Shown here: in pieces, positions 1 to 27,286 of the stretch | How positions within the stretch are numbered: the first letter of the stretch is position 1 | Layout: each line of letters starts with the position of its first letter | Assembly (NCBI GenBank): GCA_919902485.1 | Contig: CAKKRB010000240.1 | Span: forward strand, 1-32,057 | Direction: 5' to 3' | Length of the DNA: 32,057 nt | Source of the DNA: Omnitrophica bacterium GWA2_41_15 | GTDB taxonomy: Bacteria > Omnitrophota > Gorgyraeia > Gorgyraeales > Gorgyraeaceae | Notes under the pieces: generated by a model | What the model saw: only the letters and a program-made list of their open reading frames with translations | Databases searched by the model: none | Told to the model about the DNA's origin: nothing | Made by a program: the position numbers and the translations under genes

Positions 1-378
1 GGCTGGGGCCATTCGGCACAGAGAGTGTTTCGCCGTGCGCTACGGTTTACGGCTCCCCCACACCCAGACAATACTCTGGGTACATAGATACCATCTCTGG
101 GTGTGGGGTTCGCCGTAATTCCTTGCGCATCTATATTCAAAAGAATCTATTATGCCGAAACCTCTCAAATGTGCCTCAGACCCCAGCCTGCACAGGGCGA
201 GCGACCCTTCGACAAGTGGTTCGACAGGGCTCACCACCTTGAACCATCCTGAGCGAAGTCGAAGGGGCTCAGGGTTCTTAGAGTCCCGAGCGAAGCCGAG
301 GGACGAGAATCGGCGCGGAGCGAAGGACGCCACGCTGGGACGTCCGAGCGTCTTTTCGTAGGCCTGCCTTAGCCCTGC
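1..378 (+). repeat. Copy A (5'-truncated by the window edge) of a ~380-nt GC-rich interspersed structured element. It carries an extra 45-nt module (306-350) and a degenerate right end.
   Basis: 3-54 aligns to 26971-27022 with 6 mismatches by eye. 109-305 aligns to 27063-27259 with 4 mismatches, and 149-305 is identical to 27103-27259. GC-rich against an AT-rich background. Confidence 0.9.
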
Positions 379-389
379 TTAAATTTGTC

Positions 390-1856
390 ATGGGTTACAA
401 AGAAGCTGTTGACTACATCAACTCCTTTATAAATTTCGAAAAGATCCCTAAATATCAATATACAGCTTCATTCAGGCTGGAGCGGATGGAAGCTATTTTA
501 GAGGAATTGGGCAATCCGCATAAAGGGCTTAACGCGATACACGTTGCAGGGTCTAAGGGCAAGGGTTCTACCTGTGCTATTACAGCTTATATTTTAAAGG
601 AGGCAGGATATAAGGTAGGATTGTATACTTCCCCGCATCTTTTAGATTTTAAGGAGAGAATTAGGATATTGTATAACCATCCTAATTGTGTAGGGAACGG
701 TTTTAAACCGTTCCCTACGGCTTTTGAAGGGATGATAAGCGAAGAAGAATTTATTGAACTCGTAGAAGAGATAATGCCTGTGGTGGAAAAATTCAGAGAA
801 CATAAAATTTTCGGCAAGGCGTCTTTTTTTGAAATAGTTACCGCATGCGCTTTTTTATATTTTAAGAAACAAAGAGTTGACGCAGTGGTTTTAGAAACAG
901 GGCTTGGCGGCAGGCTTGATGCGACAAATGCAGTAAAGCCTTTAGCGTGCGGAATAACAAACATAAGCCTTGAGCATACTGATAAATTAGGGGATACTCT
1001 TGAAAAGATTGCGTATGAGAAGGCGGGAATAATAAAAGGTGCCCCTCGACTTCGCTCGGGACGAGAAGGGTGGAGGGTGAAGGGTGGAGGGACGGTGGTT
1101 AGCGCAAGACAGGAAAAAGAGGCTGCTGAAACCATAAGAAAGGTTTGCAAAGAAAAGAACGCAGGATTATATGAAGTGGGCAAAGATATACAATATTCTA
1201 TTGTAAGCTCAGATGAGAATAGCCAGGTTTTTGATTTAGAAGGGCCAGGGTATTCATATAAAAACCTGGAGTTAAATTTGATAGGCATGCATCAGGTTGA
1301 AAATGCGGCTATTAGCATTGGTATAATAGAATCTCTGGGTGATAAATTTAAAATTAAGGAGTCGGACATAAGAAAAGGTTTAAAAAATGCAATATGGCCT
1401 GGAAGGCTGCAGGCGATCAGTAGAAATCCTTACATAATATTAGACGGCGCGCATAATTCTGCCAGTATTTCTGCATTGATTAGTTCTATAAAGAAACTGT
1501 TCAAATATAGAAAATTGATAAGCGTGTTCGGGATATCAAGCGACAAGGATGTAAAAGGAGTCAGCAGCATGCTGGGGGCTGTAAGCGATATAATGATATT
1601 AACCAGGGCAAAGGATAATCCCAGAGCCAAGGATACAGCAACACTAAAAGCTAATTTTAAAAAGCCAGAACTCATGCTTGAAGAAAGCAGTAATGCGGAT
1701 GAGGCTATAGAAAAGGCATTGAAACTTGCGGATAAAGAAGATTTAATACTGGTTACTGGCTCGCTGTTTCTGGTAGGCGATGCCATGAGCTATTTTAAAA
1801 ATGCAAAAGTTGAAACGTTAATTCACAAAACAAGTCATACTCGTTTTGTGAATTAA
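390..1856 (+). CDS. folC: Folylpolyglutamate synthase / dihydrofolate synthase (FolC, Mur-ligase family), lengthened by in-frame inserts
   Basis: P-loop HVAGSKGKGST, TSPHL, EKAGIIK and ILDGAHN motifs typical of FolC. 488 aa is longer than I recall for the family. Confidence 0.9.
   Translation: MGYKEAVDYINSFINFEKIPKYQYTASFRLERMEAILEELGNPHKGLNAIHVAGSKGKGSTCAITAYILKEAGYKVGLYTSPHLLDFKERIRILYNHPNCVGNGFKPFPTAFEGMISEEEFIELVEEIMPVVEKFREHKIFGKASFFEIVTACAFLYFKKQRVDAVVLETGLGGRLDATNAVKPLACGITNISLEHTDKLGDTLEKIAYEKAGIIKGAPRLRSGREGWRVKGGGTVVSARQEKEAAETIRKVCKEKNAGLYEVGKDIQYSIVSSDENSQVFDLEGPGYSYKNLELNLIGMHQVENAAISIGIIESLGDKFKIKESDIRKGLKNAIWPGRLQAISRNPYIILDGAHNSASISALISSIKKLFKYRKLISVFGISSDKDVKGVSSMLGAVSDIMILTRAKDNPRAKDTATLKANFKKPELMLEESSNADEAIEKALKLADKEDLILVTGSLFLVGDAMSYFKNAKVETLIHKTSHTRFVN
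690..718. repeat. 29-nt palindromic insert inside folC (gtagggaacgg-ttttaaa-ccgttccctac)
   Basis: Perfect 11-bp arms around TTTTAAA. Both strands translate to VGNG(F/L)KPFPT (compare the shadow ORF 587-1288). Confidence 0.85.
1041..1092 (-). repeat. GC-rich in-frame insert in folC. It holds a reverse-oriented copy of a hairpin module of the large element plus a tandem 14-nt direct repeat.
   Basis: The reverse complement of 1041-1062 is gtcccgagcgaagtcgaggggc, versus gtcccgagcgaagccgagggac at 283-304 and 27237-27258. 1065-1078 and 1079-1092 are gaagggtggaggg(t/a) twice. Confidence 0.8.
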
Positions 1857-3298: not shown

Positions 3299-3327
3299 AT
3301 AGACAGGTTTTACAATGTTGTCCTAAT

Positions 3328-3380
3328 CGTTAATTCACAAAACAAGTCATACTCGTTTTGTGAATTAACGGGATTTTTTT
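3328..3380 (+). terminator. Copy 2 of the 43-nt hairpin repeat followed by a T7 run; intrinsic-terminator-like element after mnmE
   Basis: The same 16-bp stem (3328-3343 / 3355-3370), then gga + ttttttt (3374-3380), then an A8 run. Confidence 0.6.
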
Positions 3381-20249: not shown

Positions 20250-21335
20250 ATGACAAAAGTTGTTCTTGTGATTTCAAAGATGGATATCGGAGGCGCAGAA
20301 AAGGTCTTTTATGATCTTGCCGAAAGATTAAGCCTGGATACCGGATACAGGGTTACTGTAGTATGTCTCTATGCGCAAGGCAGGCTTGGAGACAGTCTTG
20401 CGGCAAAAGGGGTGGAGATACATGAAAATATCTTAAAAGATAAATTTGACGCAGCAGGAATTTTCAGGTTAGCTGATATGCTCAGAGACAAAGCTCCAGA
20501 CATTCTTTATATCGCAGGCCAGGCTGTAACTCAAGCTGTTTGTCTGATAGCCGGTATATTTGTAAAGATACCTTTAAAAGTCATAGGTTTTCATTCTCAT
20601 AATCTGGTCCGGAGATCCTGGATAAAATCATTGACAGACAAGCTAAGCATATCCTCTGCAGGTTATATAACGTGTGTATCGGAATCCCAGAAGAAACATC
20701 TTGTTTCCGATAAGAGAGCGCAGTCTGAAAAAATAAAGGTTATCTACAATGGGGTAGATACCAAAATTTTTAAGCCATGCGCAAAAAAGGCTGATAATTC
20801 TATTGTTATAGGCGCAGTAGGTTCAATGAGAATGGAAAAAGGTTTTGATATTTTGATAAAGGCTATTCCCTGGGTTTTGAATAAATGCCCAAATGCTTTT
20901 TTTATGATGATAGGGGAAGGCAAAGAAAAAAATAACCTTGAGAAACTGGCATCTAATCTAAAGGTGGATTCAAGTGTCAGATTTCTTGGCCAGAGAGAGG
21001 ATATCTCTGAGATCATACCAGCGTTTGATATTGCCTGCTCAAGTTCCAGGATAGAAAATTTCCCTCTTTCTATACTTGAATACATGGCGTGCGCTAAACC
21101 GGTAGTGGCTACAAAAATAGGGGGAGTGCCTGAGATGGTTAAGGATGGATTTAACGGAGTTGCGGTTGATGCAGAATCTCCTGAAGCTTTAGCAAAAGCC
21201 ATAGTATGTCTGATAAATGATAAAGAATTGAGAAAAACCATGGGCATTAACGCCAGAAAGACTGTAGAGGAAAATTTTACAGTTGAAAAGATGGTGCAAA
21301 ACTATAAGGATTTTTTTAGAGATATACAAAAATGA
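20250..21335 (+). CDS. GT4-family glycosyltransferase
   Basis: ENFPLSILEYMACAKPVVATKIGGVPEMVKDGFNG (E-x7-E region). Confidence 0.85.
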   Translation: MTKVVLVISKMDIGGAEKVFYDLAERLSLDTGYRVTVVCLYAQGRLGDSLAAKGVEIHENILKDKFDAAGIFRLADMLRDKAPDILYIAGQAVTQAVCLIAGIFVKIPLKVIGFHSHNLVRRSWIKSLTDKLSISSAGYITCVSESQKKHLVSDKRAQSEKIKVIYNGVDTKIFKPCAKKADNSIVIGAVGSMRMEKGFDILIKAIPWVLNKCPNAFFMMIGEGKEKNNLEKLASNLKVDSSVRFLGQREDISEIIPAFDIACSSSRIENFPLSILEYMACAKPVVATKIGGVPEMVKDGFNGVAVDAESPEALAKAIVCLINDKELRKTMGINARKTVEENFTVEKMVQNYKDFFRDIQK

Positions 21336-24300
21336 GAATTTTGATTACTACAACCTTAAATAAAAATATGACAGAGGCAAAGATAAAGCCGCTCTTGATG
21401 CTGCCTGAAGTGGAACAGGTATTCTATGTGTCTGACATGCCAGGCCCGTATTTTGAAAAAGTCAGATATTATTGCATGCCTGGCTGGATATTGAGATCCT
21501 GCAGGAATAATTCATTGGTAAGATGGACATATAAATTTTTTACAGCCGGATATCTGGCTTTATCCAAAAGACCAGATATGATTATGGGTTATGCATTGAT
21601 ACCTCACGGTATAAATGCGGTTTTAATAGGTAAATTGCTGAATATCCCTGTATGCGTAAATTTTATGGGCGGGAGTTTTTTAATAGAGAGCATAAATCCA
21701 TTATTGAGAAAGCTGGTTTTAAGAATAGCTGATATGGCAGACATAATCACTGTCACAGGCTCGCGCACCAGGGATTTACTTGTATCAAAAGGTATCAAAG
21801 CAGGCAAGATAAAAATAATATCCAGCACTATAGATACAAAAAGGTTTTTCCCGCAGCATCTGGATAAGCAATACGACATTATCGCAGTGGCTCAGTTGAA
21901 TCACGGCAAAAGAATAAGCATGTTTCTTGATATCATTTCCAGGCTTAAAAAATCCGGCATCAATTTGAAAGCTGTGATAGCAGGGGACGGCTGTTTAAAA
22001 AAAGACCTTGAGGAGTTATCAGAAAAAATAGGACTTCTGGAAAATGTATATTTTGCCGGATTCCAGCCTGATATTGAAAAATTTCTTAATGAGTCGAGGG
22101 TATTTTTGCTGCCTACGGCTCATGAAGGCTTGTCGCTTGCAATGCTTGAGGCAATGGCATGCGGGGTTGTGCCTGTTGTTTCAAACGTGGACAACCTTTC
22201 TGATGCGGTAAAAGACAGGTTTAGCGGAAGATTGATAGACAGGGATGATACAGAAGGGTTTGTTTCAGCTGTTTCTGAGTTATTAAAGGATAAAAGTATA
22301 TATGAAACTTATGCGAAAAATTCAGTTAATACTATAAATGAACTTTATACAATTAATAATGCGGCTCAAAAATGGACAGAGATTTTAAAACCCTCACCCC
22401 AACCCTCTCCCATAAATGGGAGAGGGAGATTGTATCATTGGTATTTTAAAAGGTTAATGGCTATGAGCGCCGAGGAGGTTATTTACAAGGCAATAGGGAT
22501 TTTAAGAAAGAAGATTTTATATTTTAAAGCAATCTCATTGGATAAGAAAATATTTTCATCTTCAATCAACAATAGAAAACCTGTATTTTTCATAGATAAA
22601 CAAGATCTGGATTTTATAAGAGAGAATATTAAAAGATCTGATTCTGTTACGCATCCCCTCACCCCTGCCCTCTCCCATAAATGGGAGAGGGGGGTTACTC
22701 TTTTAGATGACATAAAACGCAGGGCAGGCTTTTCTGATTTTGAAATCAGGGCAATATGGGAACCTAACAGGTTTCAGTGGTTTGTGAGTTATGCCCAGAT
22801 ATATGCCCTGGATAGAGATGAAAAAATAGCAAAAGATATAGTTGGTGTATTAAATGATTGGATATCAAGAAACCCATTTATGAAGACCTTGAACTGGATG
22901 GACAGTCTGGAGGTTTCTTTGCGGCTTTTATCCTGGTCATGGATATATTTTTTGATAAAAGATTCAAAATCTATGGATGTTGATTTTGAAAGAGTATTTT
23001 TGAAAAGCATATATCTGCATGCGGAGTTTATAAAAAACAACCTGTCTGGTTATTCATCTGCTAATAATCATCTGATAGGGGAAGCAGCAGGCCTGTTTGC
23101 GGCGGGTATCCTGTTTCCAGTATTCAAGGCGTCTTCTGCATGGACAAAGAAAGGCAAGTTTATACTTGAGAGGGAGATGATAAGACAGGTATATCCTGAC
23201 GGCGTGGATAAAGAGCAATCGAGCCATTATCATGAGTTTGTAATGGACTTGTATCTGATAGCGGTTATTCTGGCAAGAAAGAACAGCATTGTATTTTCAG
23301 AAGAAATGCTTTTAAGGCTGAACCGCATGGGTGAATTTTTGATAAGCATAATGGGCCAAAAAGGTAAAACCCTGTCCATAGGAGACAGCGATGACGGGGT
23401 TGCTTTAAAATTCGGGGTATCAGAAGAAGCGCAGAACGCCGTTTCTCTTATAAATACAGCCTGCATCCTGTTTAACAGGCCTGATTTTAAAATATGCGGA
23501 GATTATCTGGATGAAAAAAGCCTATGGTTAATGGGTTATGAAGGTTATGCCAAGTATTCTGCAATGGAAAAAGCTGATTCTAAGCAGGGATCAAAATGTT
23601 TTTCAGAAAGCGGTTATTATATCATGAGAAACAGGGAATTATGCATTAGCTTTGATTGCGGGGGTTTGGGTTATTTATCTCTTGCCAGCCATGGCCATGC
23701 AGACAGCCTGAGCATAAACCTGAACGTCTGGGAAATGCCTGTTTTTATAGATCCGGGCACGTACCTGTATCATTCATGCGGCAAGTGGAGGGATTATTTC
23801 CGCGGCACTTCAGCTCATAATACAATTAAGATTGACAAGCTGGATCAATCAGAGATAGAAGGGCCTTTCTTATGGGGTTATAAAGCCAGGTCTTTTCTCA
23901 AATACTGGTCCCAGAATTGCAGGATTGACAGGGTGTGCGGTTATCACACAGGCTATACGAGATTAAGCGACCCGGTTTCGCATGCCAGAGGTATTACATT
24001 CGATAAATATAATAATGAAATAGTGATAACAGACAGCATTTTTTCTAAAAAAAGACATCTTGTGGAGCAATTCTTTCATCTGCATCCGGATTGTTCTGTG
24101 GAACAATTAGATAGTCATTCATTCGAGATTATCAATGCAGCAGGGAACAGGCATGCCTGTTCCCTGCATATGGAAATAGACAAGGGCCTTGATTCGCATA
24201 TTTTAAAAGGCTCTGAGTCGCCTATTGCAGGGTGGTATTCTGATAAGTTTGGAGAAAAACAAAAAACAATCACAATTTGCAATAGCTCTTATTCAAAAGG

Positions 24301-26904: not shown

Positions 26905-27286
26905 GCCAGCCCTGGCAGGTTTTGAGAAAGGCCTCGCCGATTCAAGCGGGCACGGTGCCCTGCCTCCAGCCTGGGGCCGTTCGGCACAGAGATGCTTTCG
27001 GCGTGCGCTACGGTTTACAGCTAGTTTTTTATACTGAAGGTAGTCTTGACAGTATAAAAAACTTCGCCGTAATCCCTTGCGCACTTATATTCAAAAGAAT
27101 CAATTATGCCGAAACCTCTCAAATGTGCCTCAGACCCCAGCCTGCACAGGGCGAGCGACCCTTCGACAAGTGGTTCGACAGGGCTCACCACCTTGAACCA
27201 TCCTGAGCGAAGTCGAAGGGGCTCAGGGTTCTTAGAGTCCCGAGCGAAGCCGAGGGACGTCTTTTCGAAAACCTGCCAGGGCTGGC
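26905..27286 (+). repeat. Copy B (complete) of the ~380-nt GC-rich structured element with perfect 19-bp terminal inverted repeats; MITE-like element or structured ncRNA gene
   Basis: gccagccctggcaggtttt (26905-26923) is the exact reverse complement of aaaacctgccagggctggc (27268-27286). The interior aligns to copy A. No plausible coding capacity. Confidence 0.9.

Follow-up and report, generated by a model that had tools for sequence, protein, structure and literature searches.

How does a single-copy gene, expected to be essential, come to carry a GC-rich repeat inside its reading frame, and does the encoded enzyme work because of this repeat or despite it? The question is raised by folC of Omnitrophica bacterium GWA2_41_15. 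The window considered here is the whole 32,057-nt stretch of contig CAKKRB010000240.1 (C240 in our numbering), part of a metagenome assembly of an uncultured Omnitrophota bacterium (1.37 Mb in 297 contigs, 40.7% G+C, 90% complete). Its folC gene holds, at positions 1041-1092, an array of four 7-nt units (heptamers) and a 24-nt module. We consider it probable that this is repeat DNA, selfish or neutral, that the gene tolerates, in two layers and within a permissive loop at the surface of an enzyme that is normal in other respects. This reading draws on the anatomy of the insert, the dispersed families to which its parts belong, the array-only state of the closest homologue, the hot spot at which it sits and the predicted disordered loop that it encodes. 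The features on which the argument leans are the following.

390-1856, plus strand: folC (folylpolyglutamate/dihydrofolate synthase), 488 aa, host of the insert (open reading frame, TIGR01499 and structure matches)
1034-1040, plus strand: heptamer-like unit AAAAGGT on the 5′ side of the module, encoding the native Lys216-Gly217 (scan at 24-nt spacing)
1041-1064, minus strand: 24-nt GC-rich module, TCGTCCCGAGCGAAGTCGAGGGGC on the minus and GCCCCTCGACTTCGCTCGGGACGA on the plus strand, encoding APRLRSGR, residues 218-225 (core matches)
1058-1091, plus (sense) strand: canonical G-quadruplex motif made of the module end and the array, GGGACGAGAAGGGTGGAGGGTGAAGGGTGGAGGG (regular-expression scan; a sequence motif only)
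1065-1092, plus strand: four-unit heptamer array GAAGGGT GGAGGGT GAAGGGT GGAGGGA, encoding EGWRVKGGG(T) (Tandem Repeats Finder, TRF)
283-304, plus strand: copy of the module core in the large GC-rich element at the window start (repeat and motif matches)
27237-27258, plus strand: copy of the module core in the second large element, 26905-27286 (repeat and motif matches)

The open reading frame (ORF) at 390-1856 is an intact, single-copy folC without signs of decay. Its product matches TIGR01499 over the full length of the model with 376 bits (cut-off 162.65), the match being divided in two at the first insert, and it finds FolC/FPGS sequences in the PDB with a best E of 3.7e-67. An AlphaFold2 (AF2) model made from a 50-sequence alignment has a predicted local distance difference test (pLDDT) value of 87.6 and a predicted template modelling (TM) score of 0.88, and superposes on FolC/FPGS crystal structures with TM-scores of 0.89-0.92. 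We regard the gene as undecayed because it retains all the columns in which 50 homologues show no variation, including G54, K56, G57, K58, G59, S60, K211 and D352-G353-A354; the P-loop, the equivalent of the carbamylated lysine and the DGAHN motif are all present, as in a FolC of the Mur-ligase fold. Lys211 aligns with Lys185 of L. casei FolC, which we take to be the active-site lysine that is carbamylated in the Mur-ligase family. The 90%-complete assembly contains no second folC, with or without insert, the other TIGR01499 match being a MurE-like gene on contig C8 with 30 bits only, and a scan of the whole window at Rfam gathering thresholds matched no family.

Read on the minus strand, the tract runs ACCCTCC ACCCTTC ACCCTCC ACCCTTC, then TCGTCCCGAGCGAAGTCGAGGGGC, then ACCTTTT, and its 52 GC-rich nucleotides (67% G+C) stand out from the remainder of folC (39%). 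The initial annotation of this locus had described a reverse-oriented fragment of the large element, containing its hairpin module and followed by a tandem 14-nt repeat, in an active-site-proximal region of the enzyme. The similarity on which it relied is real: the reverse complement of 1041-1062 (gcccctcgacttcgctcgggac), namely GTCCCGAGCGAAGTCGAGGGGC, agrees with GTCCCGAGCGAAGCCGAGGGAC at 283-304 and 27237-27258 in 20 of 22 positions and differs in two. The degenerate 22-mer matches three times in the window against 0.00 expected from 100 shuffles, and the same pairs appear in the repeat search as I5 and I18. As for the 14-nt repeat (gaagggtggagggt at 1065-1078, gaagggtggaggga at 1079-1092), it is indeed tandem, with the heptamer as its unit, (GGGTGRA)4: two 7-nt variants, GGGTGGA and GGGTGAA, alternate, and TRF returns both period 14 (1065-1091) and the more basic period 7 (1067-1091, 3.6 copies). 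The frame is kept across the GC-rich insert (...EKAGIIKGAPRLRSGREGWRVKGGGTVVS...), as had been stated; the added residues, put at about 16 and described as Arg/Gly-rich, number 15 (45 nt) when measured against 120 homologues. The array accounts for a net gain of 21 nt (+7 aa) over array-free orthologues. Only one of its units has TGR in frame, and there folC has TGG (Trp) and its closest homologue, P0001, has TGC; this is probably a footprint of selection, because a GGGTGAA unit at that place would bring a TGA stop into frame. The G-quadruplex motif is the sole one in folC, with three in the window and 41 in the genome.

Comparison with homologues separates the insert into two parts. When 24 nt are taken away, folC reads IIKGEGWRVKGGGTVVS, to be compared with IIKSEGCRVKGGGAVV in P0001 (85-87% identical) and IIKGGGWRVKGGGAVI in P0010 (locus L116), and both homologues have the array at the identical codon without the module. 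The DNA of P0010 at the site is ataaa gggtgga gggtgga gggtgaa gggtgga gg. The array is therefore common to the three sequences, and the module is an additional 24 nt. A similar relation is found in two other enzymes. TrpE of genome G003 has LAQG-FPRLRSGQ-ARLKAQG, array plus module, where the source genome and G011 have LAQGSRLKAQG, array only, the lengths matching after 24 nt are subtracted; PurQ has the module alone in G005 and heptamers together with the module in G004. It is from three such with/without comparisons (folC against P0001, TrpE at locus L145 against the source genome, and PurQ at locus L125) that the 24-nt length of the module derives. In other FolC lineages the module occupies the same codon and frame among other heptamers, CAAGGCT in P0005, AAGGTCA in P0113 and GGGACAA in P0017.

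Since these comparisons return an exact net 24 nt and zero extra units, the tract at 1041-1092 lacks the target-site duplication (TSD) of a miniature inverted-repeat transposable element, and it lacks terminal inverted repeats as well. The units that flank the folC module, CACCCTT and CACCTTT, agree at six of seven positions in the scan at 24-nt spacing, and we considered whether such heptamers represent a 7-bp TSD. This candidate was rejected; flanking heptamers are no proof of a TSD because any insertion into a period-7 array acquires such flanks, and the net gain is 24 nt.

These relations suggest how the insert may have been assembled. The first layer is the (GGGTGRA)4 array, with its net 21 nt (+7 residues), at the codon that follows the EKAGIIK motif of FolC; the second is the 24-nt stop-free module, placed exactly between GGT and GAA of the array and adding eight residues (APRLRSGR). 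Most probably the module inserted after the array had formed, an order of events that we infer, as we do the neutrality of the insert and the manner of its copying. Both layers would survive because their lengths are multiples of three, because the frame in use has no stop and because the product is a flexible Gly/Arg-rich loop-out. Across the data, module gains are of precisely 24 nt and TSD-free, array gains come in 21-nt steps, turnover is rapid and the association of module with array is strong.

Among 121 Omnitrophota FolC sequences (120 homologues and the source gene), the excess at the codon after EKAGIIK is zero in 81, +7 in 19, +8 in five and +15 to +24 in nine, with -1, +1, +3 or +9 in six others; the insert is accordingly absent from most orthologues. 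In all 121 the length differences at the site keep the frame. The +7 inserts, where their DNA was examined, are period-7 arrays of differing sequence, and the module is found at this codon in four FolC sequences, the source folC included, each time as array plus module. A tree made with the insert columns left out requires at least 21 changes between presence and absence (25-32 in the first five shuffled-label runs). Judging from these alignments, the codon is a hot spot of array gain, loss and replacement. PurQ and TrpE behave in the same way at loops of their own, where the heptamer, in about four units, differs in nearly every member of the genus. The folC insert is one instance of a genome- and phylum-wide habit and is not special to folC. 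Neither of the two situations that the initial annotation had set against its own proposal, relatives with the same segment in AT-rich codons or a second intact folC beside decay of this copy, was found.

A search of metagenome contigs for other folC alleles, by an exact-flank pattern with a spacer of 25-55 nt, gave no match. Two further FolC sequences from ENA, P0002 and P0003, agree in full over their first ~215 residues and through most of the C-terminal part but differ in the middle, with EQRAESKEP and RQKAQGKRQKLK, respectively, as hot-spot arrays; this mosaic pattern suggests either recombination between strains or assembly mosaics.

What, then, is the module? Its 17-nt core, CCGAGCGAAGTCGAGGG, has 38 copies in the genome at up to two mismatches and 51 at up to three. 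A 19-nt core at no more than one mismatch has 30 copies here and 0-25 in each of 40 relatives, being found in 29 of the 41 genomes (a reversed control pattern in none). The contexts are at least four: each large element has it twice, two further types of element contain it, and it forms a stand-alone 24-nt unit within heptamer arrays. In 12 of the 38 core copies the same heptamer (at least six of seven positions) lies on both sides at exactly 24-nt spacing, as against 0.5% of 5000 random positions, and the flanking heptamers vary from locus to locus (AGCCTTG, ACCCTYC, TGTCCCT). The copy nearest to that of folC lies in hypF on contig C50, where the 22-nt core GTCCCGAGCGAAGTCGAGGGGC and the heptamer family are both alike. 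The module is an independent 24-nt family that is merely contained in the large element, and the description of the insert as a reverse-oriented piece of that element did not hold up.

The module core has zero stop codons in all six frames, and about 20 copies are read within long ORFs in several frames (PRLRSG, SLGFARD, PSTSLGT, PERSRG, SRAKSR). Hosts confirmed by Pfam include RibF, CysS, DapF, HypF, PurH and CarA; the copies often lie in linkers between domains, and the Pfam domains are intact. A related observation concerns ribF (C8:~20560-20680), where a ~110-nt GC-rich element with a variant module core is in frame in the linker between FAD synthetase and riboflavin kinase.

The heptamer arrays are a second dispersed class. 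Tandem repeats with at least three perfect copies number five at period 7, against 0 expected, one each at periods 6 and 8 and zero at periods 9-15. In the TRF output, 34 heptamer arrays are GC-rich; ORFs of at least 100 aa contain about 30 of these, and four are intergenic; 14 of the 34 have 4.0-4.6 units, the maximum being 4.6, and the arrays in FolC, PurQ and TrpE of relatives likewise have about four units with a net gain of seven residues. GGCTCAA and GGGTGRA are the main families, with hosts that include TrpE, PurQ, PurL, ValS, NadC and a radical-SAM enzyme. Compared with the dispersed heptanucleotide repeats of the long simple sequence repeat (LSSR) or short tandemly repeated repetitive (STRR) type, these arrays share the excess of period 7 at many loci and the preference for about four units, and do not share the mainly intergenic location. 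Inverted pairs of the GGCTCAA type, in which an array is followed by a short spacer and a reverse-complement array, occur at C157:5505-5567, C295:14192-14256 and C245:1106-1223. They would form long hairpins; two are read through in frame in genes and one is between genes.

In the protein, the insert is predicted to be a 15-residue disordered surface loop on a normal FolC fold. The model drops below a pLDDT of 50 only at residues 99-108 (another insert in folC), 222-231 (the insert) and 477-488 (the C-terminal tail), and it places a coil at 215-234, from the helix at 204-214 to the strand at 235-238. The insert begins seven residues downstream of Lys211, so that its description as active-site-proximal is apt only along the sequence; in the model it is a disordered loop between that helix and that strand. 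We expect that FolC works despite the insert and not because of it. In sum, what the initial annotation had seen, a real folC with an in-frame GC-rich repeat insert, is confirmed, and its interpretation is supported in part.

Which proteins might copy such repeats? Genes for Y1/HUH transposases (PF01797) number five in the source genome and are present in 23 of 25 genomes searched. Around or within those on contigs C161, C278 and C248 lie GTAGGG palindromes, the classical layout of repetitive extragenic palindromes (REPs) and REP-associated tyrosine transposases (RAYTs), and the genome contains 555 GTAGGG/CCCTAC hexamers. RAYT/Y1 transposases as mobilisers of the module are not supported, the Y1 genes being bracketed by those palindromes instead. 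A further in-frame insert of folC, at 687-720, does touch this family: it is a perfect GTAGGG-tagged palindrome, GTAGGGAACGGTTTTAAACCGTTCCCTAC, which counts at 690-718 among the GTAGGG family, encodes VGNGFKPFPT and corresponds to the disordered residues 99-108. The REPs of this layout sit inside genes here.

PF05635 proteins, known from 23S rRNA intervening sequences and resembling the Avd four-helix bundle, are a second candidate. The sole PF05635 gene of the genome (C207:1072-1374) lies between inverted heptamer arrays at 1011-1041 and 1406-1441. The whole locus (L175, C207:1011-1441) consists of a 122-aa ORF with arms of AAGGCAA x4.4 and ACTTTTG x5.1. Of ten such genes in the source genome and relatives taken together, eight have arrays beside them, in five cases as an inverted pair on the two sides, and the heptamers differ in relatives. 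In G008 the folC array (AAAAGTC/AAAAGGC) falls in the heptamer family of the arms of that genome's PF05635 element. It is tempting to propose that the folC array might be a solo arm of a small PF05635-carrying element with inverted heptamer arms. The link between PF05635 and the arrays is an association and not a mechanism, and we know of no catalytic activity and no mobility function for PF05635 proteins.

Similar behaviour is known from other bacteria. Ogata et al. in 2000 reportedly described Rickettsia palindromic elements (RPEs) as in-frame repeats in housekeeping genes. RPEs are alpha-proteobacterial elements of ~100-150 bp, clearly palindromic, translated and placed on protein surfaces, and are regarded as tolerated selfish DNA. 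The likeness lies in dispersed repeats that are in frame in core genes of a small genome, here with some 20 copies of the module and some 30 arrays in long ORFs. The folC insert, however, combines a weakly self-complementary 24-nt module with a 7-nt array and has neither the size nor the palindrome of an RPE; it resembles the RPEs by behaviour and is not a member of the family. In-frame repeats in genes have been reviewed as a general theme (PMC10969869).

Heptamers of about four units at many loci, G-rich with quadruplex potential, bring to mind the dispersed heptanucleotide repeats, of which the cyanobacterial STRR heptamers are one kind. In Geobacter metallireducens, where they are genic as well, GGGACCG occurs four times over at 49 inter- and intragenic sites (PMC2700814), while the GGGNATC repeats of Xanthomonas and Nostoc prefer four units and show under-representation within coding DNA (PMC4692102). 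Unlike the latter, about 30 of the 34 Omnitrophota arrays are in frame in ORFs of core enzymes; moreover, their heptamers vary by genome and locus, and the arrays are landing places for a 24-nt element. REPs and REPINs are short GC-rich multi-copy repeats (20-40 nt), GTAG-tagged and palindromic, mobilised by RAYT (Y1 HUH) transposases (PMC3733652). The module shares the size class, the composition and the presence of Y1 genes in the genome, but it begins (T/C)(C/T)(G/T)GTCCC without a GTAG tag, is weakly palindromic and genic, and does not flank Y1 genes, the GTAGGG palindromes being a separate family. As for the PF05635 cassettes, their inverted heptamer arrays are akin to the genic ones, whereas folC has a single array with no inverted partner and no ORF. 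Within the literature searched, we found no description of such arrays or modules for Omnitrophota.

The view that the insert is a broken reverse fragment of the ~380-nt GC-rich element, left by an aborted insertion or recombination, takes its appeal from the 20/22 match to the 3′ module of that element and from the presence of two large copies in the window. The likeness nonetheless ends at the 22-nt core, the rest of the element being absent from folC; at least 12 copies of 24 nt with heptamer flanks, as well as copies in other contexts, have the core independently of the element; the nearest copy is that of hypF on C50 (core GTCCCGAGCGAAGTCGAGGGGC, same heptamer family), not that of the large element; and the 24-nt unit recurs in folC, trpE and purQ of other lineages. 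We judge this origin very improbable. An assembly artefact, in which a repeat was threaded into folC from, for example, the near-identical hypF locus, might come to mind for a metagenome-assembled genome of 297 contigs in which ~50 nt are nearly the same in folC and at a C50 locus near a contig end. Entry and exit in frame within folC would nevertheless demand two graph switches within 50 nt, and independent assemblies have the array (P0001, P0010) and the module at the same codon (P0005, P0113, P0017), which leaves an artefact scarcely credible. That the insert is functional, as an adaptive Arg/Gly-rich loop that binds, for instance, nucleic acid or a partner protein, as a regulatory mRNA or DNA structure such as a sense-strand G-quadruplex that adjusts folC translation, or as a phase-variable switch of folC, we hold to be very unlikely. 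The canonical quadruplex motif at 1058-1091 is on the sense strand, genic GGGTGRA arrays are nearly all G-rich on that strand even though the C-rich orientation is also stop-free, and catalytic Lys211 is seven residues away along the sequence. Against this, the insert is unconserved, with unrelated heptamers or nothing at the codon in close relatives; dozens of unrelated enzymes carry these repeats too; the loop is predicted to be disordered; on/off switching of a single-copy gene that is expected to be essential would be harmful; and the frame is kept in 121 of 121 homologues, whose lengths change in steps divisible by three.

There is another way to look at the regularities. A dedicated, lineage-specific process, by an enzyme or a templated copying system, might write fixed-size cassettes, either about four heptamers or the 24-nt module, at particular sites. 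The mechanism, and not selection only, would then account for the in-frame length and for inserts recurring at a single codon, and PF05635 elements with heptamer arms would be its autonomous source. Arrays that group at about four units (maximum 4.6, n = 34), those four between genes included, would fit such a process, as would perfect (GGCTCAA)4GG arrays that are the same in TrpE, PurQ and a radical-SAM gene, three genes without relation to one another, the genome-specific heptamer families (folC of G030 has AGCTGTC at two sites), the family shared by the folC array and the PF05635 arms of G008, and the arrays around eight of ten PF05635 genes (five inverted on both sides, C207:1072-1374 among them). 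The four-unit preference has, in addition, been reported for Xanthomonas/Nostoc and Geobacter (PMC4692102, PMC2700814). On the other hand, one native and three added units would give four by selection alone in coding DNA, and only four intergenic arrays bear on the size rule. Native sites are also often heptamer-like, as is AAGGCTCAAGG for K-A-Q-G, which fits local expansion; these sites and the identical perfect arrays in unrelated genes leave local expansion and import both compatible with the data. PF05635 proteins, moreover, have no known catalytic activity, and one such gene in the genome, with none in nine of 15 genomes searched, contrasts with arrays that are widespread. Such a dedicated writer is, in our estimate, unlikely. 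Stated more broadly, an undescribed DNA-level process of Omnitrophota, possibly tied to PF05635, that repeatedly and independently writes fixed-size cassettes at recurrent loop codons in many essential enzymes is a minor possibility worth keeping in mind; the folC insert would then be its product instead of an outcome of slippage and selection. If it were true, it would amount to a new bacterial mobile or templated element, in frame by construction, and a natural source of protein loop diversity.

Tolerated repeat DNA, the reading that we prefer, has its own difficulties. Inserts recur at one codon, arrays keep to about four units even in intergenic DNA and heptamer families are genome-specific, all of which hints at a directed process and not at plain slippage with selection. 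The comparison with P0001 is at the protein level and does not tell a gain of the module in the source folC from a loss in P0001, and the insert allele is known from one metagenome assembly. No module core lies next to the five Y1 genes, and no enzyme is linked to the module. Alone, the module folds at a minimum free energy of -0.9 to -2.1 kcal/mol (z 0.1 to 1.2), not beyond shuffled sequence, for which reason we rejected it as a strong hairpin and do not retain the name of hairpin module given to it in the initial annotation. Finally, the loop or the sense-strand G-quadruplex motif may have a function.

If tolerance is nevertheless the right explanation, an enzyme that is presumably essential and encoded once in a small genome can bear two nested repeat layers seven residues from its catalytic lysine and still look fully functional. 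FolC, PurQ and TrpE would then offer a natural record of the turnover rate and step sizes (+21 nt, +24 nt) of such repeats. Inserts of this kind lengthen proteins, split hidden Markov model matches and make GC-rich islands, and annotation and binning of uncultured lineages should expect them.

Other repeats lie close to folC or elsewhere in the window. A 50-nt AT-rich hairpin is present after folC (1813-1862) and after mnmE (3325-3374) in copies that are 98% identical, and the first of these encodes the last residues of FolC, within the tail (477-488) that the model shows as disordered. At 22391-22431 and 22656-22696 lie two copies of a C-rich hairpin element (CCCTCTCCCATAAATGGGAGAGGG), which fit the canonical quadruplex/i-motif pattern on the minus strand. 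The gene that follows folC, mnmE, contains a perfect 8-nt tandem repeat, (AGAGCACC)x4.4, at 2068-2102, read in frame as EHQSTRAPEHQ; the genome has no other perfect period-8 array with at least three copies.

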